Counted from the stretch's first letter, positions 9,049 through 63,419 are shown. The stretch is DNA of 64,000 nt from Alphaproteobacteria bacterium (GCA_965224275.1 CBDCYR010000005.1:386903-450902); one strand, 5' to 3'. Notes: a model not told the origin generated them from the sequence alone. Translations and numbers: made by a program.

Positions 9049-9081
9049 CGATCAGTCCCTGTCGTTCATCGGGCCGAACCG

Positions 9082-25539: not shown

Positions 25540-25566
25540 GCGTCCTAGACGTCCTAGGCGGCCTAA

Positions 25567-26498: not shown

Positions 26499-26551
26499 TA
26501 AGCGGCCCGGACGACTGAAACGGCTTAGCGGAGGAGCAACACGGAGTCGCC

Positions 26552-30403: not shown

Positions 30404-30503
30404 TTAGAGAAGTAACGCCAGGACAGCGGACAACGACACCAACGTCCCTCTCGCAAGCGAACAAGGATTTGCCGCACCTCGACAAGCTCCCTCGCCCTTC
30501 GGG

Positions 30504-35145: not shown

Positions 35146-35452
35146 ACCGGCCTCGTCGAGGTTTGGTTAGGGACCGCGCGGGCGCTGCAGCGGCCCTGCT
35201 GCCGCGCAACTAAGACGCGATAACGTATACGGTTTCCGGCCGAAAACCATCATGTGGCCATCTGTTTTGCAGAGTTCGGCAGATCATTCCATGACTACCC
35301 GCCGACATCGGCGCGCTGGCGTGTGGGTTGATGGATGATGTGTAAAATGCCGGCATCATTAACCTAAGTTGGTGAGCGCCGAACATTATCGGTCAGGGTT
35401 GCGAGTGATCGGCGCACCATTCACACTGGGCGATCGAACCAGGAGCAAAGTT

Positions 35453-39338: not shown

Positions 39339-40055
39339 TCAGAATATTTCCCGCCTTCCTATTGCCGCATCAACAACGGCGCCGCGGCGGTCAATACCGG
39401 CGCGCGCGAGGGCAAGGGCGAAAAGCGCTGGGATTTCTGGGTCAGCCACGGCATCACGCCGGAGTCCGAAACCTCGACTCACTATTTCTGGGCCCTCGCC
39501 CATCGCACCTGGACCAACAACCAAGACGACATCGAGGAGTTCCACCGCCAGTGCCATCACGTCGTCGGCGAAGATCTTGCCGTGTTTGCGGCCCAGCAGG
39601 CATCTATCGACCTCGACCCCGGCGCGCCCACCCTCGATATCCGCTACGACGCCGGCCCCATGATGGCCCGCCGTATCATCAACGAACTGCTAGAGGCCGA
39701 GCGAACACCTCCTGCAAACCACGAGTAGCGGTTCTGCAGCCCTTTGGGTGTTCCGCTAACCCAACCGTCGAACCGCGCATGCGGTTGTGGCGCTCTTGGG
39801 TATTTTGATTAGAGGCGGAGGCGTCCGGCTAGTTCGGGCAGAACATCCCAGAAGTTCTGCCAACCCAACACCGGACATTTCTAAGCGCTCGTGGGTCGCA
39901 CACGAATCATCATCGACGGCCTGCTCCCGTGAGCCGGTCTTGATCATTCCCCTCCTGCGGGTAAAGGACGGTCGCGTCCATTCGAACCTCAGGAATAGAC
40001 CGGGGCCGAAGCTCCATCTTGATTCGAATGACACTCGTACTATATATTATTACGA

Positions 40056-45670: not shown

Positions 45671-46858
45671 TCAAGGCGCCTTGGTCTGAGTTTCGGCCAT
45701 GGGGTCGTTAGCCCGCCGTCCAACAAGTTGACTCCATTCGTCGTAAAAGACACGCACGCTTTCGTCATCCTGAGTTGCGTGTCCTTCATGACGACCGAAA
45801 ATTCCGTACCGGGCTGCCCGCTCGCGGTTGGCTCGCGCGACGCACTCGACCGCAATTACGTCTTCGGGGACGTTACGTCCAAACGGCCCCCAAAACTCGT
45901 TGTGGTGCTCTATACGCATGGCGCGGTCTTGCGCGGATTCACCCTTTACGCCCAGTCCCCGCCACTCAACGAGTGTTTTCTCGGCGCTGAGCGCATTGGT
46001 CGTGTGAATCATCATCACGGTAGCGCGGCATACAAATACCGTATTCGGAAAGAGACCGACGACGCGGGTTTCGCCGGGATGTAGGCCAGGAAGGGTATTG
46101 TCGCGCTGGCCAGAACTGCCGATGTTTTGATAGCTCTGCCGCGTCGGTTCGAGCGAAGCATGACCATGAGGATAGAAATGCCAAGGCGTATCGAAGTACC
46201 CCTCTGTGCGGATTCCAACGCGACGGTTCAGATAGTGAAGATACTCATGGTACAGCTCCGTGCTCACCTCGTGCCATTGCTTCCAGTTAGCATCGACGAC
46301 TGCGCGATGCAGATGAAAAACCTCCAGTTCACCGGTTGCGAAAATGGAGGTCAGGCTCTCAAATGCATCACCTAAATAGTCGTCAAAAGAATTCGCCGAC
46401 GTATCCAAGTTGACGAACACTAAATCATGGCGGGTTTCCGCCCTAACTTCGCGTAAGCCCCGATCGGCCTTGCAGATCCCCGCTTCCTCGTATCCTTCTT
46501 CACGTGGAATCGAAATGCATTTGCCCGAGGTGTCATAAACCCAGTTGTGGAAAAGGCACGTCCATGACTTGGCATTGCCCGCAGCTTCTCGCAGCACCAG
46601 AGCAGAACGATGCGAGCAAGAGTTGATAAAGGCGCGGATTTGCCCATCATTGTCCCGGGCAACGATCAGTGGATACCCGGCGTACTCGAAGGTTCGGTAG
46701 TCGCAGGGAACCGGGATCTCGCTTTCGTGGCAGATGAATTTCCACGTCTTGCGAAAAACGAACTCCCGCTCATCGCGAAATATGTCGGGGTCTGTGTATA
46801 TTCTCGAGTCAACATAATCCCGTTCGTGCAGTGCAGTCTGGTGGGCCGAGCCTCCCAT
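45671..46858 (-). CDS. Rieske non-heme iron oxygenase alpha subunit (no adjacent beta subunit or reductase)
   Basis: CSHRS...CLFHNW Rieske motif. NWKQWHEVSTELYHEYLH catalytic motif. Confidence 0.8.
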   Translation of the reverse strand: MGGSAHQTALHERDYVDSRIYTDPDIFRDEREFVFRKTWKFICHESEIPVPCDYRTFEYAGYPLIVARDNDGQIRAFINSCSHRSALVLREAAGNAKSWTCLFHNWVYDTSGKCISIPREEGYEEAGICKADRGLREVRAETRHDLVFVNLDTSANSFDDYLGDAFESLTSIFATGELEVFHLHRAVVDANWKQWHEVSTELYHEYLHYLNRRVGIRTEGYFDTPWHFYPHGHASLEPTRQSYQNIGSSGQRDNTLPGLHPGETRVVGLFPNTVFVCRATVMMIHTTNALSAEKTLVEWRGLGVKGESAQDRAMRIEHHNEFWGPFGRNVPEDVIAVECVARANRERAARYGIFGRHEGHATQDDESVRVFYDEWSQLVGRRANDPMAETQTKAP

Positions 46859-46938: not shown

Positions 46939-47049
46939 GCGCTCCAACGGCCTGCTGGAGAGCATCAACCATCACCTGGTCATGGCGGCCCGGGAGCTGG
47001 AAGGACGCGAGGCCGGCCCGAGCGCCGGGGTGATCGACAGCCAGAGCGT
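46939..47049 (+). mobile_element. Internal fragment (~111 bp) of the IS5-family element (encodes SNGLLESINHHLVMAARELEGREAGPSAGVIDSQSV of the transposase)
   Basis: Exact match to an internal segment of the 932-bp IS. No ends or TSD, so it is a remnant. Confidence 0.7.
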
Positions 47050-47265
47050 CAATTTCTATTTGCCGCAGTCTGGTGGCAATGTCCGAGGTAGCTCCCCGTT
47101 GGTCGGTGCGGCCATGAGTCGGAGCTGTTAACGCGGCGCCGATGCGTTGTATGCGCTGACGCGGCCATGATACGCTCCTCTTAACAATAAAATATCGTGT
47201 CGGTTCGATTGCCCGCATTCATTCGAAGCGGTGATCCGACTTCAAGCGACCAAGGGGAGGACAAC

Positions 47266-48276
47266 ATGATCCGTATCTGCAGCTTGTTACTCGTTGGGTT
47301 TATCGCGTTGGTGGCCATTACGTTCTCGAACAATGTCATGGCCGAAGAAGTAACGCTTCGAGCGGTGAGTTACACGCCGATCAACACTGAAACCTCGTCG
47401 CACTTCGCCAGATTCATTGACAAGGTCAACGCCGAGGGCAAGGGACTCGTGCAGATTAAATACCTTGGTGGCGCGCCGAAGGTCATGACCATTTTTGAGG
47501 TCGGTAACGCGGTCAGCAAGGGCAGTATCGATATCGCCAACGTAAGTGGAGTTTTCTATGCCTCCCTCGTGCCTGTCGCAAACGCAACGTTTTACTCCGA
47601 ACACACCATTCAAGAACTGCGCAAAATGGGTGTCTGGAAATTGATCGTTGATATTCATCGGGAAAAGATGAACGTCCACTATCTAGCCCGCGCGCGCGAC
47701 CGCATGACCCTCAGTTACTTCGTCAACAAGAAAATTACCAAACCCGACTTCAGCGGCATGAAAATGCGATCAAGCACGCTGCATACGCCATTTATCAAAG
47801 CACTTGGCGGGACGCCGATCGAGACCGGGCTCCCTCAAATTTACCCTGCGCTCGAACGAGGCGTCGTTGACGGGCTCGGATTCGTGACCTCTCTGTTGAT
47901 GGATTTCCGTCTTCATGAAGTCGTCAAGTATCGCATTGAACCCAGTTTTTACCGGTTAGACATCGCGATTCTGGTCAATTCGCGGGTGTGGGAAAACAAG
48001 CTCAACAACGAGCAACGGGCGTTCCTCACCAAGATGGGAGAGTGGGTAGAAAGTATCAACGTGGAGGACATCGAGAAGGACAAAGCGGCCAAGAAGCGCC
48101 AGGAAGATGCCGGAATGAAGGTAATCCGGTTCACCGGACAGGATTGTATCGACTACATTCGCAAGGGCTACGAAGCCGGATGGGCCGCGGTTACCAAGCG
48201 CGATCCCGAAAACGCGAAGAAGCTCAGGAAACTGATCTACAATCCGGCCGCGATTGAAAAAGCATTCTGTTCGTAA
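47266..48276 (+). CDS. dctP: TRAP transporter substrate-binding protein (DctP family)
   Basis: AAGGGGAGG RBS then ATG 47266. Signal peptide MIRICSLLLVGFIALVAITFSNNVMA. DctP-like body. Confidence 0.75.
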   Translation: MIRICSLLLVGFIALVAITFSNNVMAEEVTLRAVSYTPINTETSSHFARFIDKVNAEGKGLVQIKYLGGAPKVMTIFEVGNAVSKGSIDIANVSGVFYASLVPVANATFYSEHTIQELRKMGVWKLIVDIHREKMNVHYLARARDRMTLSYFVNKKITKPDFSGMKMRSSTLHTPFIKALGGTPIETGLPQIYPALERGVVDGLGFVTSLLMDFRLHEVVKYRIEPSFYRLDIAILVNSRVWENKLNNEQRAFLTKMGEWVESINVEDIEKDKAAKKRQEDAGMKVIRFTGQDCIDYIRKGYEAGWAAVTKRDPENAKKLRKLIYNPAAIEKAFCS

Positions 48277-48342: not shown

Positions 48343-48879
48343 GTGAGGCCACCTCGCATGTTTGCTATGGCAGCGATCTATCGGGTGGTCCTCGAGCTCT
48401 GCGGGAGGCTCACCGGCCTCAGTATCGGCATCATTGCCGTTCTGGTTAGCGTCGACGTTCTAATCCGGAATCTGGGGTTCGCCCCTCTCTCCTGGCTGCT
48501 CGAATCTGTCGAATACACGTTGTACGCCACCACGTTCCTGGCGGCTCCGTGGGTGCTGAGCAAAGGTGCTCACGTTCGGGTCGACCTAATTATCGTTCTG
48601 CTACCCCCAAAGTTCCGTTATGGGCTCGAACTGCTGGTCGATGGGCTTGGCGCTACCATCTCGCTGATTCTGTTTTACTACAGTCTCGGCGAGGCCATCG
48701 ATTCCTACGCTCACGATCGGCTCATTTATAAGACTCTAACCGTGACCGAGTGGTGGTTTCTTGCCATCATTCCCTTCTCCAGTGCTCTTCTGGCGATTGG
48801 GTTTGTCCTGCGGATTCTTCGCACTGTCTCCCACGGCATTGGCGCCGTTGAGGGCACCCGTATCCCGGACGGGTTTTAG
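48343..48879 (+). CDS. dctQ: TRAP transporter small permease (DctQ family)
   Basis: 178 aa, four hydrophobic segments, positioned between dctP and dctM. Confidence 0.6.
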   Translation: MRPPRMFAMAAIYRVVLELCGRLTGLSIGIIAVLVSVDVLIRNLGFAPLSWLLESVEYTLYATTFLAAPWVLSKGAHVRVDLIIVLLPPKFRYGLELLVDGLGATISLILFYYSLGEAIDSYAHDRLIYKTLTVTEWWFLAIIPFSSALLAIGFVLRILRTVSHGIGAVEGTRIPDGF

Positions 48880-48882: not shown

Positions 48883-50199
48883 ATGAGTTGGAGTGCGACC
48901 CTGGCGTTGCTGCTCGGCGGCTACGTCTTTCTCATGGCAATCGGGCTTCCCGTCGCTTTTGCGTTTTTTGGCATCAACTTGGTGGGCGCATTTATGTTCC
49001 TGGGCGGCGAGATCGGTCTCCACCAACTCGCCCGCAATTCCATGGGCGCGCTGACAAATTTCATATTAACGCCGATTCCCCTCTTTCTGCTGATGGGCGA
49101 AATTCTGTTTGAGACCGGTGTGGCGGTAAGGGCGATTGACGCGATCGATAAGTTGATCGCCCGGGTTCCCGGCCGGTTATCGATCGTGTCTATCGTTGGC
49201 GGCACCTTGTTCTCTTCGCTTTCAGGTTCGACGATCGCCAACACCGCGGTGCTCGGAAGCACGCTGCTTCCCAATATGCTCAAGCGGAATTACCACCCAA
49301 ATTTCGCAATGGGGCCAATCATGGCGGTGGGCGGGATCGCCATGCTGATCCCGCCTTCGGCCCTCGCGGTTCTGTTAGGCAGTCTGGCCGGCATATCGAT
49401 CGCCAAGCTTTTGATCGCCGGAATCGTCCCCGGCATCTTGATGAGCGTGCTCTTCGTTGTCTATGTGGTGGGACGCAGCGTCACCAACCCGTCGCTGGCC
49501 CCTGCGTACGACGTCGCGCACTTGACGTTGTGGCAGCGTTGGCGACCGTTCCTCATCTACGTTGTGCCGCTGTTCAGCATTTTTGTCGTCGTCGTGGGTA
49601 GCATATTTGCGGGATTGGCAACGCCGACGGAATCTTCTGCGCTCGGCTGTATCGCTTGCTTGATCATCGCGATCGCCTACAGATCGCTCACCCTCCGGAA
49701 TTTGATGAACGCGCTTCAGGAGACGGCGAAAATATACGCCATGGTGCTGTTCATCATTGTGGCGTCACTCACTTTCTCGCAGATCCTAGCGCTGTCAGGT
49801 GCTACCGACGGACTTCTCTCCCTGATCACTGGTGCCGGCTTGTCAAAGTTCACGATCGTGCTGGGCATGCTCCTAATCCTGCTTTTCCTGGGTGCCTTCA
49901 TGGATCAGGTGAGCATGATGTTGATCACACTTCCCCTATACATGCCGATGGCGGAGACCATGGGAATCGATGTCGTCTGGCTCGGCGTGCTGATACTGGT
50001 TTCCATGGAAGTCAGTCTGCTAACGCCGCCGTTCGGCATCCTGCTGTATACGATGAAAGGTGTGGCGCCCCGGGAGATAACGCTACAGCAAATCTGGTGG
50101 GCGGCCGCTCCGTTTATTGCACTGGAGTTGCTGGTCCTGGTGCTGCTTGTGGCTTTTCCTGTGCTGGCTCTATGGTTGCCATCGGTGACTATTAAGTAA
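48883..50199 (+). CDS. dctM: TRAP transporter large permease (DctM family)
   Basis: 438 aa polytopic membrane protein with DctM features. Confidence 0.85.
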   Translation: MSWSATLALLLGGYVFLMAIGLPVAFAFFGINLVGAFMFLGGEIGLHQLARNSMGALTNFILTPIPLFLLMGEILFETGVAVRAIDAIDKLIARVPGRLSIVSIVGGTLFSSLSGSTIANTAVLGSTLLPNMLKRNYHPNFAMGPIMAVGGIAMLIPPSALAVLLGSLAGISIAKLLIAGIVPGILMSVLFVVYVVGRSVTNPSLAPAYDVAHLTLWQRWRPFLIYVVPLFSIFVVVVGSIFAGLATPTESSALGCIACLIIAIAYRSLTLRNLMNALQETAKIYAMVLFIIVASLTFSQILALSGATDGLLSLITGAGLSKFTIVLGMLLILLFLGAFMDQVSMMLITLPLYMPMAETMGIDVVWLGVLILVSMEVSLLTPPFGILLYTMKGVAPREITLQQIWWAAAPFIALELLVLVLLVAFPVLALWLPSVTIK

Positions 50200-50213
50200 A
50201 CCGCTGCTTCTAA

Positions 50214-51156
50214 GAGTCCGACTCGAAACTCTATGTTTGATAACAGTACCTTGCGAGCCGCCTTGTGAGGAGTCGGATGTTGGCGACAAGAATCCATGCC
50301 TGTGCGGAGGCGATTGATTTCTCCCAATCCTTGGCCAGTCGACGGCATCGGTTGAGCCAGGCGAAGGTCCTCTCGACGACCCATCGTCTGACCTTCACCT
50401 TGGCAGGAGCTCGAAGCCCTGGGCGGTGTCTGAGCGCTTGATGATCTCGAGCTTCCAGCGGCCGATGTCCTCAAGGGCGCCCTCGAGTTTCGGTCCCGCG
50501 TAGGCGGCGTCGGCGAAGAGGTGACGCAGCCGGGGGAAGCGATGACGGATCGATTTGAGGACCTCGGGCGCGCCGTCGCGGTCCTGGATATCGGCTGCGT
50601 GCACGATCAGGCCGACCAGCAGGCCGAGTGTATCGGTGACGATGTGACGCTTGCGGCCCTTGATCTTCTTGCCCGCGTCATAGCCCCGAACACCACCGCT
50701 TTCCGTGGTTTTCACGCTCTGGCTGTCGATCACCCCGGCGCTCGGGCCGGCCTCGCGTCCTTCCAGCTCCCGGGCCGCCATGACCAGGTGATGGTTGATG
50801 CTCTCCAGCAGGCCGTTGGAGCGCCAGTCGTAGAAATAGCGCTGGACCGTGGAAGGCGGAGGGAAGTCGTTCGGCAACATCGCCCACTGGCAGCCCGTCG
50901 AGGCCATGTACATGACCGCATCCATGACATGGCGCAGGTCCGTCGTCCTCGGCCGGCCGATCTTCTTGCGCGGCGGCATGAGCGGCGCGATCAACGCCCA
51001 CTCTCGATCCGTCAGGTCGCTTGCGTAGCGCCCGCCACGGCGCTCATAATTCGGGCGAGTGATTTCGGTCCACATGTTGTGCCTCCTCGTTTGCTTTGAC
51101 ACAACCGAGTAAGCCACAACCGACTGAAATCACTCAACTAGTTTCGGGTTGGCCTC
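50214..51156 (-). mobile_element. IS5-family insertion sequence copy 4 (943 bp: 932 bp plus an 11-bp insertion ACCTTCACCTT at ~50391-50401 that frameshifts the transposase), TSD TAA
   Basis: TAA at 50211-50213 and 51157-51159. Transposase ORF terminates prematurely (240 aa, 50395-51117). Confidence 0.85.
50395..51117 (-). pseudogene. IS5-family transposase, frameshifted by the 11-bp insertion
   Basis: Protein identical to other copies up to ...GFELLPR, then premature stop. Confidence 0.75.
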
Positions 51157-51395
51157 TAAGGACTCTATCAGGAGCGATATCAATGGTTATTCCGACGCCG
51201 TCTCTCTAATTTGCGACATGTTTCGGTGCTCGTCGCTACGCTGGTGGTTTAGAGGAGATCCGCGGCGGCCGAAAGCGTATTGCCAGCAAACAGCGCCAAT
51301 CAGAGCCCGCGTAGCGCCATCACAAAATGACTAAGCTCGCAGGCGAGTGTATGGTGCGCAACCGAACAATCGTCGTGTGGTAGAGGAGGATTACG

Positions 51396-52325
51396 ATGAC
51401 TTCCGCATCCGCAATCAATCGATCCAAAGTGATCGACGCTCATGTCCATCCGTTCGGAAATCCAGCTTGCAATCTTACCGGGAAGATCAACGTCAAACGC
51501 GATGCCGTCCTCCTTCGCAAACGAGACCCCGGTTTATTTCAAGAGCTTTGGGGCTCGAAGATGGAGGATCAGACCGACCTCTTGATCGAGGATATGGACG
51601 AGCGCAACATCGATCATTCGTTGATCCAACCCTCCGTTGGTGAGGGAAACGACGGTGTTGCCGAAGCCATCAACAGGCATCCCGATCGACTCTTCGGGTT
51701 GTTCACCACCGAGCACGATCTTTTGGGCGATCGGAGCGTCGTAAAGCCTACCGACCTCGGCAAGTTCGGAGAAGAAGCCAGTCGCCGCTTCGATGATGAA
51801 GGATTTAGGGGCGTCGGCGAGATTGTCATCAGTGACTTCACAAAAGAATCGGAGCCACCAAAAATAGCTAACGACCTCATGCCGTTCGTCGAAATCCTCG
51901 ACCGCCACAAGAGCCCGGTCCAATTTCCGACTGCCTGGACCCAGTTTGACACCCCTCTTTATCATGGCTTTCCGCTGTTCATCGACAATCTCGCTGAGCG
52001 GTATCCCGATGTGCCCGTCATCATTACCAAGATGGGTCGCGGATATGATTTTATTTTCGAAATGTGCTTGGCGGTCGCTTTCAAGCACGAACACATCTAT
52101 CTGGAAACCTCGCAAGCACCGGCCCGTCATATTTCCAGAGCGGTCAGCGAGCTCGGCGCGGAGCGGGTGATCTTCGGCACCGATTGGTGCGCCAGTTGGC
52201 GCGAACTCTACTTGCCCAAAGGTATCTACAGGAACGGCATCGACATCGTCGATGACGCCGGTCTTTCCGACGACGACAAGGACTGGATCTTGGGTAAGAC
52301 CGCCGCCGCGCTGTACCGGATCTAA
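51396..52325 (+). CDS. Amidohydrolase-2 (PF04909) family protein, member of a three-gene paralogue set (with 57961-58875 and 58925-59881)
   Basis: GAGGAGGA RBS. Motifs VIDAHVHPFGNPACNLT, AWTQFDTPLYHG, KMGRGYDFIFE, FGTDW shared with the other two. Confidence 0.75.
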   Translation: MTSASAINRSKVIDAHVHPFGNPACNLTGKINVKRDAVLLRKRDPGLFQELWGSKMEDQTDLLIEDMDERNIDHSLIQPSVGEGNDGVAEAINRHPDRLFGLFTTEHDLLGDRSVVKPTDLGKFGEEASRRFDDEGFRGVGEIVISDFTKESEPPKIANDLMPFVEILDRHKSPVQFPTAWTQFDTPLYHGFPLFIDNLAERYPDVPVIITKMGRGYDFIFEMCLAVAFKHEHIYLETSQAPARHISRAVSELGAERVIFGTDWCASWRELYLPKGIYRNGIDIVDDAGLSDDDKDWILGKTAAALYRI

Positions 52326-52341
52326 CCAACGTCGATCGGGG

Positions 52342-52362
52342 CTAGTGGATGGAATCCACTAG
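52342..52362 (+). terminator. Perfect 9-bp-stem hairpin CTAGTGGATggaATCCACTAG 17 bp after the amidohydrolase stop; no T-tract, so terminator function is uncertain
   Basis: Seen in sequence. Confidence 0.3.
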
Positions 52363-53959
52363 CTGTGCCGATATCTCCGGTGCTTCACGATGCTCGCGCA
52401 GGAAGCGCTGCCGAGCGTTCTTTTTTGGTCTTGGGCGTGTAAAAACGTTCGCCGGATTAGCGATGCGGTGAGGGTTAGCGGTGCTGTTCGGGCCTCGTCC
52501 CTTTTTTCGGTTTTAGCTTGTCGTAGGGGCGGATTAGGCTGTTTCACCGCCACGACTGGATCTCGCGAGGGCGTCGCGGCGGTAGCGGGCCCTTACACTA
52601 TGCCCGCATAGCTGCCATCAGGGGTCCGGCGCCGAGAACGTTCATGACTCGCGTCAGATTGTAAGCGAGTACGTGCAGCGCCATTTCGGTTCTGACCCGC
52701 GGCAGCGTCTTCACCAGGAAGTGGGTGGCACCCATTCGGGCTTTGATGGTGCCGAAGGGGTGTTCGACCGTTTCGCGCCGCTGGCGCATCTTTTCCGGAT
52801 GCGCGTCGAGCCGGTGCTGGACCTCTTCCAGAACGTGCTCATGCTCCCAGCGGGTAATTCGGCGCTCTTTGGCGGTGGTGCACTGAGCCTTAATGGCGCA
52901 GTTCTGGCAGACATTGGTCCAGTAGCGACGTAGGGACAGCCCGTGCTCCTCTCTGGTGAAGCGGTAGACCAAGCGCTCGCCGGCTGGACAGACGTACACG
53001 TCCTCATCCTTCACATAGCGGAAGTCCTGCTTGCCGAACTTCCCTTTGGCTTTGATGCCCGAGGTTAGCGGTTTGGGGAGCGTGACTGTGATGCCGGCCT
53101 GATCACATGCCAGGATCTGATTGCTACTGAAGTAGCCGCGATCGGCGACCACCTCGAGTTTATCGACGTTCAGAGCGGCCTTGGTCTGCTCCGCCATGGG
53201 AGAGAGTTGCGCTCTGTCATTGCCAACGTTGGTCACCTTGTGTGTGACGATCAGGTGGTTCGACGTATCGACCGCGGCCTGCACGTTATAGCCAACCACA
53301 CCGGAACCGCGACCGCTGGTAGCCATGGAGCGAGCGTCGGGATCGGTCAAGGAGATCTGATGATCGGGTGTCGCGCGCATACGGGCGTCGAGGGCCGTAA
53401 GCCGTTGCATCTCCAGATGAAGACGCGCGATCTTCTCTTTCAGTCGGGTTACTTTCATCGCAAGCGCTTCCGACGGCTCCTGGCGGTCGGCGCTGTCGAG
53501 CTGATGGAGATAGCGCGACACGCTCTCTTCGATCTGCGCCTTGCGCCGATCCATCTTGGCGCGGGTGAAGTTCCGGTCGCGGTTGTTGACCGCTTTGAAC
53601 TTGCTACCGTCAATCGCAACGCTGGCCGTTGTCAGTAGACCGATCCTCCGGCAAAGCTCGACGAACCGGGCACAGACTTTGCCGATGGCAGCGCCGTTGT
53701 CCTTGCGGAAGTCAGCGATCGTCTTGTGATCCGGCACCAGGCGGCCGGTCAGCCACATGACCTCCACATTGCGCCCGGCTTCGCGTTCGAGACGCCGGCT
53801 CGATTGAACCCGATTAAGATAACCGTAGATGTACAGCTTCAACAGAACCGATGGGTGATAGGACGGACGGCCCGTGGCCGCTGGATCGATACCGCCAAAA
53901 CCAAGCCCACCCAGATCCAGTTCCTCGACAAAGACATCGATCACCCGAACCGGGTTGCC

Positions 53960-55353
53960 GGCTGTGTCTCGAAAGTGGTGGAAATTTGAGGATGGCGTAA
54001 TCTCCGGGTGACAAGACAACCACCCAACCGGCGGCTAGCACCGCCAAGGAGATCACGCCATGAAGAACACTACCGAGACTTCCGCGCTTTCGCTACTGGC
54101 CAATGACGCCGGCTATGATCCGCTCGAGGACCGGCTGCGGGAGAACATCAGATCCACGATCGAGGCCGTTTTTGAGGAGGAACTTGCGCAGTTTCTCGGG
54201 CGCTGCCGATACGGTCGAGAGGACGCGCTTCGGCAAGGGTATCGGAACGGGCACCGGGAGCGGCAACTGACGGGGACATTCGGGACCGAGAGGGTGAGCG
54301 TGCCGCGTGCACGGATCGTTGAGGAAGACGGTCGGGCGTCGGAATGGCGTTCGCGGGCGCTGCCGCGCTACCAGCGGCTGACCAGAAAGGCCGAGGCGCT
54401 GATCGCTTCGGTGTATCTGTCCGGAACCAACACGCGGCGGGTGAAACGCGCGCTGTTCGGGCTCTTCGGGGGTGCTGTGAGCAAGGACGTTGTGAGCCGG
54501 GCGTGGCGCAAGGTGAAGGTCGATTGGGACGCCTGGTGCAGCCGTGGCCTCGCGGATGAGGATATCGTTCGGCTGATCCTTGACGGCACTGTGATCAAGA
54601 CCCGACTGGATCGCAAGGCCACCAACATCTCGGTTCTCGCGGCTATAGGGGTGCGCCGGGATGGCCAGAAGGTCTTGCTTTCGATCGGGAATATGGGCGG
54701 AGAAAGCCAGGCGGCGTGGCGCCAGTTCCTCGACGACCTTGATGCGCGTGGACTGAAACGGCCCGGGTTTGTCATCGTCGATGGCGCGCCGGGACTGGAG
54801 GCGGCTCTGTCGGCGCTTTGGGGCGATGACCTTCCCGTTCAACGCTGCACCGTGCACAAGCACCGCAACCTTCTGGGTCATGCTCCCAAACACATGCATG
54901 ACGAGCTGAGCGAAGATTACCGCGATATGATCTATGCCGACACTGCCTCCGAGGTGGAAACCCGCCGCAAGGCGTTTGTCCGCAAGTGGCGGCTGAAATG
55001 CAGGGCCGTCGCGGACAGCCTCGCAGAAGCGGGCGACAAGCTCTTTACCTTCACGCGCCTGTCCAAGAGCCAATGGAAATCAGCCCGAACGACCAACGCC
55101 ATTGAGCGTCTCAACGAGGAGTTCAAGCGCCGGATCAAAACACAGACCGTGCTGCCGTGTCCCGAAACAGTGCCGATGCTCCTCTGGGCGCTCCTCGCTT
55201 GCGGCCAAATCCAGATGCGCAAAGTCGATGGATGGGAAACCCTCGATCAGCTAATCGCCGACGAAACCCTTGACCGCGCGGCCTGACCGCCGCAAAACTC
55301 AACCCGCTCGGAGAGGCGCCAAAACCAATTTCCACCACTTTCGAGACACAACC
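53960..55353 (+). mobile_element. IS256-family insertion sequence copy B (1394 bp), 9-bp TSD CGGGTTGCC, nested inside the IS1182 transposase gene
   Basis: Same IRs as copy A. CGGGTTGCC at 53951-53959 and 55354-55362. Confidence 0.85.
54060..55286 (+). CDS. IS256-family transposase (408 aa)
   Basis: 1-aa difference from copy A. Confidence 0.9.
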   Translation: MKNTTETSALSLLANDAGYDPLEDRLRENIRSTIEAVFEEELAQFLGRCRYGREDALRQGYRNGHRERQLTGTFGTERVSVPRARIVEEDGRASEWRSRALPRYQRLTRKAEALIASVYLSGTNTRRVKRALFGLFGGAVSKDVVSRAWRKVKVDWDAWCSRGLADEDIVRLILDGTVIKTRLDRKATNISVLAAIGVRRDGQKVLLSIGNMGGESQAAWRQFLDDLDARGLKRPGFVIVDGAPGLEAALSALWGDDLPVQRCTVHKHRNLLGHAPKHMHDELSEDYRDMIYADTASEVETRRKAFVRKWRLKCRAVADSLAEAGDKLFTFTRLSKSQWKSARTTNAIERLNEEFKRRIKTQTVLPCPETVPMLLWALLACGQIQMRKVDGWETLDQLIADETLDRAA

Positions 55354-56681
55354 CGGGTTGCCTTCGTCGATCCAGTCCTCAAGACACTCGGGGAACAGCG
55401 TCGACTGACCCCGGTCCACACCCGCAACGAAACGCTTCATCAAATACTCCCGCCAAACGACGGGAGAATCATAACAACACCAACGTTTTTACACAGGCTG
55501 GGTCATGACAAGCCATTGCCGTTCGAACGCATTCCCGCGCCGATAGCTGCCCCCGGCGCGAAGTGAGCACTCAAGGCCGTAGACATGGCCGATGATTCAG
55601 CGGTCGTCATAGGCGCAGGAATTGCGGGAATATTGGCCGCGTCCGCGCTTGCTCGGCACTTTCGCCGCGTCACGATTGTCGAGCGTGATCGCCTTCGAGA
55701 CGTGCCGGAAGTGCGTAAGGGAACCCCCCAGTCGGCCCACGTTCACATACTTCTCGATCATGGTCTTACGGTTTCCGAAAGTCTTCTGCCGGGCGCGCGA
55801 AAAGCGCTCCTCCAAGCCGGCGCCATCACCATACGCGCAGGCTGGGATGAACGTGTGTTCGATGGCGAGCAGTGGCTTCCCCAGCTCGATTGTGGGATTA
55901 CGAATTTATCCCAGAGCCGGCCAGTATTTGAGAACGCACTGCGCGGCTGCCTGCAGCAATTCGCCAATGTAGACGTCCGGGACGGGACAAGTCTCACCGC
56001 GTTCAGATTGAGCGATAAAGGCTGTGTCACAGGCGTTGACGTGACTGGCCCATCCGGAAAGGCCGAGCATCTACCAGCAACCCTAATTGTTGACGCCTCG
56101 GGAAGAGCCAGCAAATCGGTGCGCTGGCTGGAACAATTAGGGTTTGGTCCGCTGGCAGCGGATGAGATCTGGATCGGTTTGAGTTATGCGAGTGGAATTT
56201 TCAGGCGGTCTCAACAATGGTGCGACAATCCGACGGCTTGGCGGGTTCAGTGCAAGGAGACCATGCGCGGCGGTGTCGTTCGCCCGATCGAGGGAAACCG
56301 CTGGATATTCACCGCCGCCGGCTATTTCGACGATATTCCTCCGATAGACTTGCAGGATATGCTTCGTTTTCTTCGATCCTTGCCGGACCCTCGGCTATAC
56401 GAGTGTATACGCGACGGAGAACTGGAGGGTCGGCTACGGGTTTACCGTACGCCGACAGTCCTCGTGCGCCGATTCGACCGATTGGCCGCGTTGCCAGGCG
56501 GATACATTCCCGTTGGCGACGTTGTGGCCCACCTGAATCCCCTCGGCGGCCAGGGCATGTCCGTTGCCGCGGTCCACGCCGACATATTGCGTAAACATTT
56601 GGAAATGCGAGCCGAAAAACGAACCGGTCCGGAGGAATTTTCTCAGGCGTTCGTCGAGGAGGCTGTTGCCGTAAGCGCTAA

Positions 56682-57613
56682 GAGGCCAACCCGAAACTAG
56701 TTGAGTGATTTCAGTCGGTTGTGGCTTACTCGGTTGTGTCAAAGCAAACGAGGAGGCACAACATGTGAACCGAAATCACTCGCCCGAATTATGAGCGCCG
56801 TGGCGGGCGCTACGCAAGCGACCTGACGGATCGAGAGTGGGCGTTGATCGCGCCGCTCATGCCGCCGCGCAAGAAGATCGGCCGGCCGAGGACGACGGAC
56901 CTGCGCCATGTCATGGATGCGGTCATGTACATGGCCTCGACGGGCTGCCAGTGGGCGATGTTGCCGAACGACTTCCCTCCGCCTTCCACGGTCCAGCGCT
57001 ATTTCTACGACTGGCGCTCCAACGGCCTGCTGGAGAGCATCAACCATCACCTGGTCATGGCGGCCCGGGAGCTGGAAGGACGCGAGGCCGGCCCGAGCGC
57101 CGGGGTGATCGACAGCCAGAGCGTGAAAACCACGGAAAGCGGTGGTGTTCGGGGCTATGACGCGGGCAAGAAGATCAAGGGCCGCAAGCGTCACATCGTC
57201 ACCGATACACTCGGCCTGCTGGTCGGCCTGATCGTGCACGCAGCCGATATCCAGGACCGCGACGGCGCGCCCGAGGTCCTCAAATCGATCCGTCATCGCT
57301 TCCCCCGGCTGCGTCACCTCTTCGCCGACGCCGCCTACGCGGGACCGAAACTCGAGGGCGCCCTTGAGGTCATCGGCCGCTGGAAGCTCGAGATCATCAA
57401 GCGCTCAGACACCGCCCAGGGCTTCGAGCTCCTGCCCAGACGATGGGTCGTCGAGAGGACCTTCGCCTGGCTCAACCGATGCCGTCGACTGGCCAAGGAT
57501 TGGGAGAAATCAATCGCCTCCGCACAGGCATGGATTCTTGTCGCCAACATCCGACTCCTCACAAGGCGGCTCGCAAGGTACTGTTATCAAACATAGAGTT
57601 TCGAGTCGGACTC
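56682..57613 (+). mobile_element. IS5-family insertion sequence copy 5, 932 bp, TSD TAA; transposase carries TGG->TGA nonsense change at the MW(TEI) codon plus one missense (D->V)
   Basis: TAA at 56679-56681 and 57614-57616. ATGTGAACC at 56763 versus ATGTGGACC in the other copies. Confidence 0.85.
56721..57596 (+). pseudogene. IS5-family transposase with premature stop near the N-terminus (downstream Met ORF 56844-57596 remains)
   Basis: See mobile_element entry. Confidence 0.7.
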
Positions 57614-57960
57614 TAAGGCATGGCGTATCTTCGCGATGCGCGATTTACAGCATCCAGCCGCGAGGGGCGAACGCCCGGTCAATTTCGACGAAGTAAAACG
57701 AATAATACGCGGCGTCGACAAACTCGTAAGTATAGATCCTGAAATCCATGAGATGACCCTCAAGATCAGAAATATGCTGGCGGAGCCCAGCGTTCTGCAA
57801 ACCCCGGAAATAGTGAGACGCGTATTGGCATTAAGTTAGAGAACGCGGCGGAAAATCTCGGTTTCCACGCCGCTCTATGACACAGGCTCCCTGAATCGGT
57901 TGAGAACCAAAACAACCGCTATGCTACGGTTATGCAAATCAAATAATAAGGGAGGAACCC

Positions 57961-58875
57961 ATGATTATTGATAGTCATGTCCATGTCGTTGGCAACCCAG
58001 CATCCAACGCACCCGACTACATCACGGTAAAACGAGACGCGGTGTTGCTTCGCCGTCGCCACCCCGATGTCTTCGCGGCCCATTGGGACCGATTGGAAGA
58101 CATGAGCGACCTCCTGATCGAGGACATGGATGCTTTCGGCATCGACAAGGCCGTCGTCCAGCCGGCGCGCGGCGAGTCGCTGGAGTTGGTTGCTCAAGCC
58201 GTGGCGAAGTATCCAGACCGCCTGGTCGGTTTGTTCATGTCCGGTTACAACGAGTTTTTTGGAAAAAATCCCATCGTTGCGGGCGGTCCGACGCAAAAGC
58301 CTGACCTCAACCAATTTGCCGACAACGTCCGCCATTGGGTCAAGGATCTGGGGCTGAGGGGATTCGGCGAATTCGGCGTCCGCACATTTAGTGAGGAATC
58401 CGATCCCAGCATGATCGCCCGCGATCTCATGCCGGTGATGGAAATCATTAACGAGTACAAAATTCCGGTCTTGATTCACACCGCGTGGACACAGTTTGGA
58501 ACCAAGCTCTATCACGGCATTCCGATGTTCGTTGATGATCTGGCTGAGCAATTTCCCGAGATTCCGTTTGTGCTGACCAAAATGGGGCGCGGTTACAACT
58601 TCATCTTCGAGATCTGCATCGCTCTGGCGATGAAGCACGATAACGTCTACCTCGACACGGTTCAGTCGCCGCCCGAACACGTGGCGCGGGCCGTCCGCGA
58701 GGTCGGTGCGGAGCGCGTTATGTACGGGACGGACTGGGACCCTACCTGGCGGCCGCTTAGCCTGCCCGAGGGAATCTATGGACGCACCCTGGCTGTCATC
58801 GAAGACGTCGGACTCACCGACGATCAAAAAGAGCAAGTGCTGGGCAAGACCTCGGCAGCGCTCTACGGGATGTAG
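57961..58875 (+). CDS. Amidohydrolase-2 (PF04909) family protein, paralogue
   Basis: GGGAGGAACCC RBS. Motifs IIDSHVHVVGNPASN, AWTQFGTKLYHG, KMGRGYNFIFE, YGTDW. Confidence 0.75.
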   Translation: MIIDSHVHVVGNPASNAPDYITVKRDAVLLRRRHPDVFAAHWDRLEDMSDLLIEDMDAFGIDKAVVQPARGESLELVAQAVAKYPDRLVGLFMSGYNEFFGKNPIVAGGPTQKPDLNQFADNVRHWVKDLGLRGFGEFGVRTFSEESDPSMIARDLMPVMEIINEYKIPVLIHTAWTQFGTKLYHGIPMFVDDLAEQFPEIPFVLTKMGRGYNFIFEICIALAMKHDNVYLDTVQSPPEHVARAVREVGAERVMYGTDWDPTWRPLSLPEGIYGRTLAVIEDVGLTDDQKEQVLGKTSAALYGM

Positions 58876-58924
58876 CGCCGCGGCGTAAGCCGCCTCCACG
58901 TAGAAAAGTGAGGAGAACGTACCC

Positions 58925-59881
58925 ATGACAAATGATGCACGACGTTCGATCATCGATATTCATTGTCATCCCTTCGGCAATCCGGCCTGCGACCTAACCG
59001 AGCATATCAAAGTGAAACGCGACGCCGTGTTGTTGAGACGCAAGCAACCGGATCTATTTGCCGAGCAATGGGGGGTTCTGGAAGATATTTCCGATCTATT
59101 GATCCACGACATGGATGAACGCGGCGTCGAAGTCGCGCTGGTTCAGGCCTCGGTCGGCGAACCCGCCGACAAAGTCGCGGAAGCAGTAAAGAAATATCCT
59201 GAGCGCTTCATCGGTCTGTGCAGTACTGGTCACTACGACTTTTATCCTGGCACTCACCCGGTTCTGGAGAAGCCCGACTACGTCAAACTGACCGAAGACA
59301 TTCGTTACCAGGTCGAGGAACTTGGATTTCGCGGGCTCGGAGAGGTCGCCGTGCGTTTATTCAGCAACGAATCGGCGCCGGACCGGATCGCCAAGGACAT
59401 GATCCCCCTGATGGAAATCCTCAATCAGCATAAGATTCCGGTGATGCTGCTAACCGCGTGGACTCAATTCGGGACGCCGCTCTACCATGGTCTCCCGCTT
59501 TATATGGACGATCTAGCCGAAAGCTTTCCCGACGTACCTATCGTCGTCATGAAGATGGGGCGGGGTTACGATTCCTTCTTCGAGATGGCGCTGGCACTCG
59601 CCACCAAGCACGACAATATTTATCTCGAGACCGCGCAAGCGCCTATGGCACACATTGAGCGCGCTGTACGCGAGGTCGGCGCCAGCCGGGTTGTCTTCGG
59701 CACCGATTGGTGCAGCACCTGGCGTCAGTTGGCTGCCCCAAATAACATGTTGGGGCTTGGGGTAGACGCTTTGGAGAAGGCGGATATCAGTGACGAGGAC
59801 CGCGACTGGATTCTCGGCAAGACGGCAGCGGAACTCTATAAAATCGATCTGTCCAAAATGGGTAGAAACGCCGTATCTTGA
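58925..59881 (+). CDS. Amidohydrolase-2 (PF04909) family protein, paralogue
   Basis: GAGGAGAACG RBS. Motifs IIDIHCHPFGNPACDLT, AWTQFGTPLYHG, KMGRGYDSFFE, FGTDW. Confidence 0.75.
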   Translation: MTNDARRSIIDIHCHPFGNPACDLTEHIKVKRDAVLLRRKQPDLFAEQWGVLEDISDLLIHDMDERGVEVALVQASVGEPADKVAEAVKKYPERFIGLCSTGHYDFYPGTHPVLEKPDYVKLTEDIRYQVEELGFRGLGEVAVRLFSNESAPDRIAKDMIPLMEILNQHKIPVMLLTAWTQFGTPLYHGLPLYMDDLAESFPDVPIVVMKMGRGYDSFFEMALALATKHDNIYLETAQAPMAHIERAVREVGASRVVFGTDWCSTWRQLAAPNNMLGLGVDALEKADISDEDRDWILGKTAAELYKIDLSKMGRNAVS

Positions 59882-60275
59882 GGTCAGAGTTGGCGTGAAG
59901 AAGAGCTCCATGAGTTGGCGTGGGAATTCATGAGTCCCTCGAGATACGCGAAGCCGCGAAAAAGGCCCATCCGACGCACCAGGCGGACTACGAAAATCTG
60001 ACGCGGCAGTAAGCCGCCATGCTGATGTCTGTGCCTTCGTGGGTGTCGCTGCTGGATGGATACGGTAAAGGCGAAGAAAGCGTCGGCAGGGCGGGCTGCG
60101 CCGATAGAACTTGGGGAAACCGGGTAAGACCACAATTCCGGCCTAATCGGGTGCTCATCCAATACGTCCGAACACCGCTCGCTTCGAGACGTAGTCCGTC
60201 AGAAAGTGGACATCGCCAGCCGGCGGGTAACGATCTGATACCAACCCATAACCCCGGTACTCGCAATCCTCGTCT

Positions 60276-61553
60276 CTAAGGTCCGATCAGTCGGGTCAGC
60301 ACCAGCGAGACGTCGGGCACGTATGTCACGATCCCGAGCGCGATGATGTTGATGATGATGAACGGCATCACGCCGCGGTAGATCGCTGCCAGCGGCGCCC
60401 GCAGCACCGACTGCACAACGAATATATTGAGCCCGAACGGCGGCGTGAACATGCCGATCTCAAGATTCATCACCATGATGATTCCGAAATGGATGAGATC
60501 GACGTCGGCGGCCTGCACGATCGGTATCAGCAGCGGCGTGAGGATGATGATCGCCGAGGTCGGATCGAGCAGGCAGCCGACCACCAACAGCAACAGGTTG
60601 ATGACCATCAGCACCGCCCACGGCTGTGCGCCGATGTCTTGAATAAAGGCGACGATCGCCTGCGGCACGCCACTGATCGTCAGCAGCCACGAATAGAGCC
60701 CGGCTGCGGCGATAATGATAAAGATCTGGGCGCAGACATAAGCCGTGCGTACCGCCGCTTCCCAAAGCCCGCGCAGATCGAGATCGCGGTAGGCAAACAT
60801 CGTAACGACAATCGCGTAGATGCTGGCGACCGCACCTGCTTCGGTGGGGTCGAAGATGCCCGAGTAAATACCGCCCAGGATGATCAACGGTGTCGCCAGC
60901 GCGAGAACCCCGCGACGGCTGGCGCCTATGAAATTGGCCAGGCTGAACGATTGGGTTTCACCAAGATTGTTGATCCGCGCGTAGACATAGATGTAGAGGG
61001 CCATCAGGGTCGCCAGCATGATGCCGGGGATGAATCCGGCGATGAACAGTTTCACCACCGATACCTCGGCCGAGCCGCCATACAGAATCATGGCAATCGA
61101 GGGCGGGATAATCACGGCAATCGCGCCAGAAGATGCCAGCACGCCGGACGAAAAGCTTTCGCTATAGCCGTTGTTGAGTAGCGGCTTGTACAACACCTGG
61201 CCCACCGCGGCGGTCGTCGCCGCGCCCGACCCGGACATCGCACCGAAGAACGCGCAACTGCCGACCGCCGTAATCGGCAGGCTGCCGCGCATTCCACCCG
61301 ACAGCGATAGAACCCACGTCACGATTCGATTTGAAAGACCGCCCCGGCTCATCAATTCGCCGGCAAAGATGAAAAATGGCGCCGCAAGGAACGACAGCTT
61401 GTCGACGCTGCCAAACATTTTGAGGTGCGCGATGGTGAGCGGCACGTCCATGAAAAGGAACAGCACGACCGCCGATGTCGTCATTAAAATGATGAAGACT
61501 GGGAAACCCAGCACCAGTAAGCCGATCGGCAGCAACACCATGACCCACGCCAT
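60276..61553 (-). CDS. dctM: TRAP transporter large permease (DctM family), second system
   Basis: 425 aa polytopic DctM-like protein. Confidence 0.85.
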   Translation of the reverse strand: MAWVMVLLPIGLLVLGFPVFIILMTTSAVVLFLFMDVPLTIAHLKMFGSVDKLSFLAAPFFIFAGELMSRGGLSNRIVTWVLSLSGGMRGSLPITAVGSCAFFGAMSGSGAATTAAVGQVLYKPLLNNGYSESFSSGVLASSGAIAVIIPPSIAMILYGGSAEVSVVKLFIAGFIPGIMLATLMALYIYVYARINNLGETQSFSLANFIGASRRGVLALATPLIILGGIYSGIFDPTEAGAVASIYAIVVTMFAYRDLDLRGLWEAAVRTAYVCAQIFIIIAAAGLYSWLLTISGVPQAIVAFIQDIGAQPWAVLMVINLLLLVVGCLLDPTSAIIILTPLLIPIVQAADVDLIHFGIIMVMNLEIGMFTPPFGLNIFVVQSVLRAPLAAIYRGVMPFIIINIIALGIVTYVPDVSLVLTRLIGP

Positions 61554-61641
61554 GTTTCGCGCGCCTACGCGTTGTCGCGTGAACGTGCCACGCGACGAGA
61601 TTGCGTCAAGGTTGTATCGACGTACGGGTCAGCCATAAAAC

Positions 61642-62211
61642 CTAAATACCGAGGTCTAATTTCTTGCCCGGCGAATCTTCCAGAAGCTCCTCGCGCACGT
61701 TCCCGAGCTCGCCTCTGATGTGGGCGCGAAACCGCGCGATGACAGCCACCATCATGAAGAAAAATCCGATCAACACCATCGAGTGGGGGATCACCATCGG
61801 GACCTCCGCGGCCACGCTGCGCTTACCGAACTCGACCTGCAGGACGGTCACCTCGAGTGATTGAATGACGATGAAGACGCAGATTGCCAAGAACAGCATC
61901 GTTGAGAGGAAATTGACGAATTCCTTCCACGGGCTCTTCAGCATCTGCGACAGGATATCCATCTTGAGATGATTGCCATCCCAGGTGACGAGAATCGCCG
62001 CGATGTAGATGAACGAAATCATCACATAGGTGAGAATTTCCTCGGCCCAGTAAAACGGCGCTAGGAAGATGTAGCGGGCGATAACGTTGGCGCCGGTGAC
62101 GGCGACGATCGAAAGAACCAATGTCCCGGCGATGAAACGCGGAACCGCGAAGATCACGCGCTCGATGCGCTGATTTCGTGCCCGCCTGTCCCCGCCTGGC
62201 GCTTCGCTCAT
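61642..62211 (-). CDS. dctQ: TRAP transporter small permease (DctQ family), second system
   Basis: 189 aa, hydrophobic segments, upstream of dctM on the same strand. Confidence 0.6.
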   Translation of the reverse strand: MSEAPGGDRRARNQRIERVIFAVPRFIAGTLVLSIVAVTGANVIARYIFLAPFYWAEEILTYVMISFIYIAAILVTWDGNHLKMDILSQMLKSPWKEFVNFLSTMLFLAICVFIVIQSLEVTVLQVEFGKRSVAAEVPMVIPHSMVLIGFFFMMVAVIARFRAHIRGELGNVREELLEDSPGKKLDLGI

Positions 62212-62351
62212 GCCGCGTCACCTCCCGCTCACACTCGCTGAAACCCGCAGAAACAAAGGGCTATCGAGCGTCGTTACCTTTACACTATCGAGATCGTTGG
62301 CTAAGCTCAACCGAGCGACCACGATCAAGAAATCCTAGGGAGGGAATTTAA

Positions 62352-63419
62352 ATGTCGTTAGCTGTATCCAGGATATTTGCGCGCTTTGCGCAGGCACTCG
62401 CGCTTGCGAGTCTCGCCGCGTTGATTGCGATACCAACCCAGCCGGCAGCCGCTGCCGACTTCACTATCAAGGTCGCGATTTTCCCGACCGACGAGATCCA
62501 TCATGAATGGGGCCGCTCATTCGAAGAGCGCCTAGAGAAAGCAACCAACGGCCGGATCGATGTCAAGCTGTTCCCCGGCCATTCGCTCGGCGGCATTGCC
62601 GAGATGGTCGATGGCGTTCAGGTTGGCACCATCGAGATCAGCATGCTGCCCCCCGGTTTCTTTAAGGGCGTCGACCCGCGCTATCAGGTCACCGACGTCC
62701 CCGGTCTGTTCGATGACATCGCGCACATTTCTCGCGCGCTGAGTTGTGACGAATTCCGTGCCCCCTTCATGAGCATGGCCGAAGACAAAGGCATGATCGG
62801 CATCTCGATCTTTGACTATGGGCCCACCGCCTATGCGTCGGTCAAACCGATCCGCAAACTCGCCGATTTCAAGGGCGCCAAGATGCGCGTGTTGGCGACC
62901 GACGTTGAGCGCGCCATCATTAAAGAATTCGGCGGCACCGGCATCCCGATGGGCATGGGCAATGTCATTCCGGCCCTGCAGCGCGGGCAGATCGACAGCG
63001 TGCGCAGCACCATCGTCGTTCTCGCGGCGCTGAAAATTTACGACGCCGCCAAATACATCACGCTCGTCGAGGATACCCACATCCCCGACATGGCGATGAT
63101 GAGCAAGAAGTTCTACGACAAGCTGCCGCCCGACCTGCAAAAGGCGGTGATTGATACCGGTCGTGAACTCGAGCGTTACATGGAAGATGTCGTCATCCGC
63201 TACGATCGTCGTGCCGGTAATATTTGGGAGAGCAAGGGCGGCGAAGTGATCCGACTGTCGACGGCGGAACGCGACGAATTCATGCGCCGTACCGCTCCAA
63301 TTGGCGACAAGGTCATGGGTGGCGATGCGAAACTCGCCCCGATGTACAACAAGCTGAAGGCATGCGCCGAGCGCACTCGCCTCACCGCGCACGAGCGCAA
63401 AAAAGGCTCAGGTCTCTAA
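62352..63419 (+). CDS. dctP: TRAP transporter substrate-binding protein (DctP family), second system, divergently transcribed from dctQM
   Basis: GGGAGGGAA RBS. Signal peptide with AAAA cleavage region. DctP-like body. Confidence 0.75.
   Translation: MSLAVSRIFARFAQALALASLAALIAIPTQPAAAADFTIKVAIFPTDEIHHEWGRSFEERLEKATNGRIDVKLFPGHSLGGIAEMVDGVQVGTIEISMLPPGFFKGVDPRYQVTDVPGLFDDIAHISRALSCDEFRAPFMSMAEDKGMIGISIFDYGPTAYASVKPIRKLADFKGAKMRVLATDVERAIIKEFGGTGIPMGMGNVIPALQRGQIDSVRSTIVVLAALKIYDAAKYITLVEDTHIPDMAMMSKKFYDKLPPDLQKAVIDTGRELERYMEDVVIRYDRRAGNIWESKGGEVIRLSTAERDEFMRRTAPIGDKVMGGDAKLAPMYNKLKACAERTRLTAHERKKGSGL

Follow-up and report, generated by a model that had tools for sequence, protein, structure and literature searches.

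Three paralogous genes of the amidohydrolase-2 family (Pfam PF04909), here called A, B and C, lie at 51396-59881 in a 64,000-nucleotide stretch of DNA from an Alphaproteobacteria bacterium (GCA_965224275.1 CBDCYR010000005.1:386903-450902; the whole stretch is referred to as the window). We consider it probable that they form a trio belonging to a small clade of the family, that they are linked to a tripartite ATP-independent periplasmic (TRAP) transporter and were split by insertion sequences (IS), and that each product is a barrel enzyme with a single metal that acts on an imported carboxylate. Judged from sequence, the clade appears to be a rare, uncharacterised branch of PF04909 with a remodelled active site.

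Three old paralogues and their active-site residues

Paralogue A (51396-52325, + strand) encodes 309 aa, B (57961-58875, + strand) 304 aa and C (58925-59881, + strand) 318 aa. Six open reading frames (ORFs) in the window match PF04909 over essentially the whole model (E 3e-23 to 3e-44), in agreement with the first-pass annotation, which had listed six amidohydrolase-2 genes. A, B and C score 83.5, 98.2 and 110.5 bits against a cut-off of 26.4 bits (model positions 1-289), and their family E-values of ~1e-100 indicate homology, not chance. The other three genes fall outside the A/B/C group. These are 9441-10343 (- strand), which has a weak match, far under the cut-off, to an L-fucono-1,5-lactonase model; 14329-15210 (+ strand, by Pfam), a gene that had been correctly recognised but given a start at 14341, an internal Met; and 41466-42602 (+ strand, 378 aa), a PtmU3/DitZ-like protein according to Pfam and PDB matches. 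In a joint alignment, amino acid identity is 51-56% among A, B and C and 16-23% between them and the other three. The motifs H.HPFGNPA...VKRDAVLLR, AWTQF.T.LYHG, KMGRGY and GTDW, pointed out previously, were found in the translations and alignment of A, B and C.

Synonymous divergence among A, B and C is saturated (dS, substitutions per synonymous site, >2 or not computable; dN, the nonsynonymous equivalent, ~0.37), and a recent tandem duplication was rejected on this basis. This, together with the 51-56% identity, upholds the earlier description of the genes as clearly diverged, and is not the near-identity expected of recent duplication only. Orthologue dN/dS is 0.08-0.14 overall (A 0.105, B 0.09-0.14, C 0.08-0.12). 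Ribosome-binding sites are strong for B (AAGGGAGGA) and C (GAGGAGAA), and A, B and C each deviate at only two or three of the 72 family columns that are conserved at >=88%. A, B and C are anciently diverged, intact paralogues.

The AlphaFold2 model of C (pLDDT 89.8) is a (β/α)8 barrel resembling solved PF04909 members. We counted residues in an alignment of 70 family sequences. D11, H13 and H15 on β1 occur in 69 of the 70, including A, B and C, as does D261 on β8 (within GTDW; 69/70). Conserved in all 70 are E140 on β4, W179 after β5, each of K210, M211, G212, R213 and Y215 on β6 (K-M-G-R-x-Y), and H243 after β7. The column of the canonical β5 His is variable (Pro 20, Leu 20, Gln 15, His 6, Ala 4, Ser 4); its position was set by model strand 173-176 and by alignment with the His of 14329, 41466 and PtmU3. 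His occurs here in exactly six sequences (B and five clade relatives), coupled with F17V, a substitution confined to the same B clade, and the position is occupied by Pro in A and Leu in C. On β6, Lys210 (in TKMGRGY) aligns with the His of GHMGEG (His218 of gamma-resorcylate decarboxylase, counted in the printed alignment) and with the His of GHMGG in PDB 3cjp.

In Pseudomonas fluorescens ACMSD the zinc ligands are His9, His11, His177 and Asp294, and His228 activates the metal-bound water (the H228A substitution lowers kcat 142-fold); active sites of ACMSD-type enzymes lie across the dimer interface, where Arg51 binds the substrate carboxylate (PMC11650718). By comparison with these residues, two of the five defining positions are lost in A and C and one in B. 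The alignment of metal ligands that the first-pass annotation had proposed as a check therefore gives a divided answer: HxH and the β8 Asp are kept, while the β6 His is replaced by Lys in 70/70 sequences and the β5 His is present only in the B clade. The suggestion that these are enzymes of the LigW/ACMSD type is not borne out, given the invariant Lys210 and the absence of the β5 His from A and C; what stands of that interpretation is a set of old, diverged, functional paralogues in an aromatic-catabolic setting. R32, R38 and R213 are conserved and are candidate counterparts of the substrate-carboxylate pair Arg51/Arg239* of ACMSD (one of which comes from the partner subunit).

More distant relatives (e.g., P0086) hold the full set of HxH, β4 Glu, β5 His, β6 His and β8 Asp in an extended alignment. 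Thus, loss of the two His and gain of the Lys are a derived signature of the clade. The motifs PT[AG]W[TS]Q and TKMGRG are common to a Variovorax paradoxus protein (30% identity), a pair of Dehalococcoidia proteins, P0084 and P0089.

The clade is small. A search of 5.8 billion clusters returned ~66 clusters at 42-94% identity, followed by a sharp fall to 31%; all ~66 are PF04909 and are either unnamed or labelled "predicted TIM-barrel fold metal-dependent hydrolase". With a 64-member profile searched against 1.84 billion representatives, we recovered 51 at E<=1e-30 and 465 at E<=1e-10. The best match in a protein search of a plasmid collection was 30.6% identical (Variovorax paradoxus), and a genome-contig scan found, among the matches listed, four loci at 45-48% identity and one at 35%. 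A phmmer search with C against all PDB sequences gave none at E<=0.01, NCBIfam has no model for A, B or C, and the family profile found only local matches in the PDB, to decarboxylases and 3cjp. The top PDB matches by Foldseek were gamma-resorcylate decarboxylase, LigW and related enzymes (probability 1.0, TM ~0.6). The best structural neighbours are the uncharacterised 3cjp and 3irs; no account of 3cjp, 3irs, CAC3332 or BB4693 was found in a literature search.

A Dehalococcoidia metagenome-assembled genome (OZ253489.1, locus L013) carries tandem genes with the KMGRG signature (8986-9936 and 9920-10945) that are 70% identical to each other and adjoin genes for a gamma-glutamyltranspeptidase and a major facilitator superfamily (MFS) transporter. 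This pair is independent of the one described here; therefore, tandem duplication happened more than once in the clade.

The TRAP operon and its interruption by insertion sequences

Upstream of A are genes for a complete TRAP system, all on the + strand: dctP for the solute-binding protein (47197-48276; Pfam DctP), dctQ for the small membrane subunit (48343-48879; Pfam DctQ) and dctM for the large membrane subunit (48883-50199; Pfam DctM, 5.5e-78). The DctP protein closely matches the TRAP solute-binding protein of PDB 4mnc/4mni (E 9.5e-60), and its gene is collinear with those of loci L007, L005 and L002. A literature search found no ligand for 4mnc/Bpro_4736; 4mnc is reportedly a benzoyl formate complex, which serves here as a lead only.

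Proteins identical to those of the window are present in long-read metagenome assemblies. Locus L001, on a 10-Mb contig, is 99.7% identical to the window over the region and has an extra IS630 just 3' of C (window 60125-60132). Locus L007 is 95% identical, and here the order is dctP, dctQ, dctM, A, an IS630, B and C, with A beginning 51 nt past dctM. Relative to L007, the window has two inserted segments (50211-51358 and 52351-57903). In the more distant L002, L003, L004 and L005, a B-type gene comes next after dctPQM and a C-type gene follows 37 nt further on, whereas A and the FAD-dependent oxidoreductase gene discussed below are missing; amino acid identity to B and C is 79% and 85% in L002, L003 and L004, and 87% in L005, which has IS1595 remnants between dctM and the B-type gene. 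B and C are together again in L008, L093 and L094, and in all loci seen (the window, L001-L005, L007, L008, L093 and L094) B precedes C with a gap of 37-49 nt. In a neighbour-joining tree the first genes of these pairs cluster with B and the second genes with C, and A forms a third clade with its orthologue from L007 (P0005), which comes directly after dctM. The gene order in relatives and the tree topology therefore identify B-C as an old, conserved tandem pair on a TRAP operon. We favour the reading that A is a third paralogue of this lineage and that the ancestral unit was dctPQM-A-B-C. L001, L094 and L008, sister assemblies from the same strain or close ones, carry differing IS630 insertions.

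In the first-pass annotation, A was said to be separated from B by IS1182::IS256, a disrupted FAD oxidoreductase and an IS5, and we recovered all of these, with target-site duplications. An IS1182-family element (52437-55494, - strand; Pfam DUF772/DDE_Tnp_1_6) has 13-bp terminal inverted repeats (GTGTAAAAACGTT) and is interrupted by an IS256 copy (53959-55354, + strand; transposase 54060-55286; Pfam Transposase_mut) with an 8-bp duplication (GGGTTGCC); the N-terminus of the IS1182 transposase (MKRFVAGVDRGQSTLFPE...) picks up again beyond it. A second copy of this 1396-bp IS256, 99.9% identical, was located at 3849-5244 by self-BLAST of the window.

The 5' part of the FAD-dependent oxidoreductase gene (55585-56681, + strand; Pfam FAD_binding_3) is cut by an IS5-family copy (56682-57613, + strand; transposase 56844-57596; TAA flanks), and the frame carries on in the 3' part (57617-57839, + strand; ...AVAVSAK followed by AWRIFAMRD...) to give a rejoined product of 439 aa. 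This product has weak matches to flavin monooxygenases of the QhpG/PRK06185 type. At the corresponding site L007, L005 and L002 have no such gene. We thus infer that it came with or beside the IS1182 element, and its membership of the dctPQM-A-B-C unit is ruled out.

A further IS5-family (IS427-like) copy (50214-51156, - strand; Pfam DUF4096 and DDE_Tnp_1; flanked by TAA), not included in the earlier annotation, parts A from dctPQM. It is missing at the L007 site and is inverted relative to the copy within the FAD gene. Self-BLAST of the window places five IS5/IS427-type copies of ~932 bp, with starts near 25.56, 29.46, 38.40, 50.21 and 56.68 kb (the other three are 25557-26504, 29460-30408 and 38396-39343), at 98.5-99.9% identity; TAA duplication was checked for those at 50.2 and 56.7 kb. 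Five near-identical copies in 64 kb point to a recent transposition burst. A 111-bp internal IS5 fragment is located at 46939-47049, between the Rieske gene described below and dctP. The DNA search of the plasmid collection matched IS elements only, at ~75-79% identity (Sulfitobacter/Paracoccus for IS256 and Rhizobium/Sinorhizobium for IS5), which hints weakly at a host among the Alphaproteobacteria. The IS/FAD block between A and B and the IS5 upstream of A are later insertions, probably with no functional link to the enzymes.

The IS5 copy at 50.2 kb differs from that of L001 by an 11-bp insertion (50391-50401), and its called transposase ORF is 240 rather than 277 aa. No recognised element was found in the ~200 bp from the end of this IS5 to the start of L007 homology upstream of A (51157-51358), or in the ~86 bp from the end of L007 homology to the IS1182 inverted repeat (52351-52436). 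Both may be old insertion scars.

Likely role and rival explanations

Clade members are nearly always found beside a gene for a solute-binding protein or transporter. We inspected further, independent contexts, and in eight of them the clade member adjoins such a gene or is within two genes of it: DctP (L090), TctC (L011, L089 and L009, the last also with a phosphonate-type solute-binding protein), an NMT1-type solute-binding protein with ATP-binding cassette genes (L006/L012 and L091), a sulfonate-type solute-binding protein (Variovorax paradoxus, L092) and the MFS transporter mentioned above (L013). The context of L010 is unclear in this respect. In the window, a Rieske ring-hydroxylating oxygenase alpha subunit (45671-46858, - strand; Pfam Rieske and Ring_hydroxyl_A) is divergent from dctP, has full-length PDB matches that include terephthalate dioxygenase alpha, and recurs beside the unit in L002, L004 and L007. 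The rest of the window is an aromatic/xenobiotic island, with genes for a molybdenum-cofactor hydroxylase, LigXa- and VanA-like oxygenases, hydantoinase A/B, nitrilase-type hydrolases, CoA ligases and a CoA transferase.

Homology, divergence, selection, synteny, the history of insertion and the residue pattern are established by the data; metal stoichiometry, residue roles, substrate and reaction are proposals. A, B and C most likely carry out a hydrolase- or decarboxylase-like step, with a mononuclear metal site, on a carboxylate that is taken up by the cell and is probably aromatic. The genes would ancestrally have been co-transcribed with the uptake system, in the order dctP-dctQ-dctM-A-B-C. 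Each protein is predicted to be a catalytically competent barrel that binds one divalent metal at the alpha site via His13 and His15 of β1 and Asp261 of β8, with Glu140 of β4 nearby. The ancestor may have had a TatD-like two-metal ligand set, of which the clade would have kept the alpha site only, giving up the second-site His of β5 and β6. Instead, the pocket would be lined by the invariant Lys210 together with Arg213, Tyr215 and His243; Lys210 could supply a positive charge or an acid/base function, and His243 likewise. Arginines 32, 38 and 213 are candidate anchors for a substrate carboxylate. The substrate would be either the organic acid that the neighbouring binding-protein-dependent transporter brings in or the compound that the nearby Rieske oxygenase first makes from it by oxidation; an aromatic or heteroaromatic carboxylate is probable. 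The reaction may be hydrolytic or lyase-type (hydrolysis of a ring, amide or lactone, hydration, or decarboxylation), and the three paralogues might act on different substrates or in consecutive steps.

Several points weigh against this scheme. The substrate class is guessed from neighbours, and these vary between lineages. Residue roles were assigned from sequence alignment and the secondary structure of a predicted model (for β5 also from a MAFFT alignment with the other PF04909 paralogues); therefore, the metal site may differ or be absent, as in LigI. IS elements physically interrupt the operon in this strain, so A and B-C may not be expressed today. Promoter and terminator scans over 50.1-60.4 kb gave counts at shuffle expectation. 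Each of three closely related metagenome assemblies also has one copy split, L001 that of C, L094 that of B and L008 that of A. In the long-read contig of L001, C is split by the loss of 1 bp from a CCC run (window 59257), as an assembly error could produce; the split copies may reflect such error or real decay in the population.

The same splits, the two breaks in the operon and the IS5 disruption of the neighbouring FAD-oxidoreductase and VanA-like genes are what would be expected if A, B and C were decaying leftovers in an IS-ridden island, non-functional in this strain. We think this very unlikely, as the window carries A, B and C as intact ORFs that have good ribosome-binding sites and 69-70 of the 72 conserved residues, dN/dS is ~0.1, and the inspected L001 frameshift need not be real. 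A loosely bound metal, or catalysis by barrel residues with none, would follow if the proteins were lactonases like LigI/COG3618. We judge this rather improbable: identity to these is only 14-19%, and the HxH and Asp, which usually mark a metal site, remain invariant. Non-oxidative decarboxylation of hydroxy-aromatic acids by a set of LigW/ACMSD/gamma-resorcylate-type enzymes radiated in specificity, as first proposed, would account for the Foldseek matches, the conserved HxH and β8 Asp, the insertion with conserved Arg residues after β1 (as in ACMSD, Arg51) and the presence of LigXa- and VanA-like oxygenases in the island; however, the His expected at β6 is not there, nor, outside the B clade, is that of β5, and this identity is unlikely.

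B and C could be subunits of one obligate hetero-oligomer like AibH1/AibH2, with A homomeric or an alternative subunit. This is possible, if doubtful, and is compatible with the reading that we prefer. The two genes are adjacent, in the same order, in every locus seen, they form separate orthologous clades with F17V and the β5 His coupled in the B clade alone, an independent tandem pair exists in Dehalococcoidia, and ACMSD-type active sites span a dimer interface. However, the other members of the clade mostly occur as single genes (L006, L089, L090, L091 and L011), so the homomer is the ancestral state, and all the invariant active-site residues are retained in B as well as in C, so that neither has the look of a partner with a structural role alone. 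A bolder suggestion, which we regard as improbable, is a new catalytic type. In this view the ancestor would have been a TatD-like binuclear enzyme whose beta metal site gave way to the invariant β6 Lys, which could stand in for the charge, be carbamylated and act as a ligand, or form a Schiff base with 2-oxo acids. The enzymes would be dedicated to solutes that binding-protein-dependent transporters bring in, and B and C would make a heteromer with two non-equivalent sites, one of them with the β5 His.

Other features of the island were noted. A hydantoinase A/B pair (16149-19984, + strand) is of the ATP-dependent oxoprolinase or acetophenone-carboxylase type and lies between short-chain dehydrogenase/reductase genes and a CoA-ligase-like gene; with the nitrilase-superfamily genes at 24288-25124 and 31224-32087 it suggests lactam or amide catabolism. 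The VanA-like Rieske gene at 37753-38433 (+ strand), third in a row after 35369-36553 and 36574-37734, has its catalytic domain truncated by the IS5 that starts at 38396. Just 3' of another VanA-like Rieske gene (10487-11653) is a 69-bp tandem repeat (11669-11840; 2.5 copies, 89% matches) with internal palindromic stretches. Directly 3' of C is a second TRAP system (60276-63419), in which the dctM and dctQ genes run on the - strand and the dctP gene (strong Pfam match) on the + strand. The genes that come after it in L001 are MetE-like (Meth_synt_2), CMD and xanthine-dehydrogenase-type, and the system is not conserved beside B-C in L007, L002 or L005.

Comparison with known systems

Characterised members of PF04909 include decarboxylases, lactonases, hydratases, C-C hydrolases and, recently, dinuclear oxygenases, and the family label does not reveal function. 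The clade is recognisable by KMGRGY, by the missing His of β5 and β6 and by two invariant residues, the β4 Glu and His243. ACMSD, LigW, gamma-resorcylate decarboxylase and IDCase share with A, B and C the family, the (β/α)8 fold, the β1 HxH, the β8 Asp, an Arg-bearing insertion after β1 and an aromatic-catabolic setting. A, B and C differ from them in the invariant Lys in place of the β6 His, the restriction of the β5 His to the B clade and the invariant β4 Glu; identity is 14-21%, and the relationship goes undetected by phmmer and NCBIfam. The structural-genomics amidohydrolases CAC3332 (3cjp) and BB4693 (3irs) are without known function, so no function can be transferred from them, and 3cjp, unlike A, B and C, retains the β6 His.

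Distant metagenomic PF04909 relatives with TatD-like ligands have GxGE on β4, HxH and the β8 Asp in common with the A/B/C clade, and two of them (P0068 and P0069) also match the TatD model PF01026. Unlike these, the KMGRG clade lacks both His of the second (beta) metal position, a loss that points, at the level of sequence, to one metal instead of two.

The amidohydrolase-related dinuclear oxygenases (AROs: PtmU3, DitZ, AibH1H2 and SfbO) have the same PF04909 fold and Rieske proteins nearby, and the two paralogues of AibH1H2 are reminiscent of B-C. AROs are marked by D-x-H on β1 and a C-terminal D-x-P-H-x-[D/E] (PMC13154177). A, B and C were rejected as AROs on these motifs, as their β1 motif is D-x-H-x-H, in which HxH occupies the ligand positions, and their C-terminal loop reads GTDW[CD]xTW. 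The window protein at 41466-42602 is a full-length PtmU3 homologue (6omp, E 1e-36), also matches DitZ, and has the D-S-H of AROs on β1; the motif near its C-terminus reads D-F-P-H-V-R, in which Arg takes the place of the Asp/Glu of AROs. A 41%-identical counterpart with D-F-P-H-S-R is located beside dctP in L002 (4680-5804, - strand) and L004 (2743-3867, - strand). These proteins could be an ARO variant or a non-oxygenase offshoot.

For A, B and C the adjacent solute-binding protein offers a handle for discovery, as its ligand would name the enzyme substrate. If Lys210 does replace a metal or alter the chemistry, the clade would be a further mechanistic variant of the amidohydrolase superfamily. 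Otherwise, the locus is a catabolic operon of an ordinary kind broken up by insertion sequences. It is a reasonable target for enzyme discovery and an unsurprising finding. Except for the apparent replacement of two usual catalytic His in a small subfamily, A, B and C look like ordinary catabolic genes.

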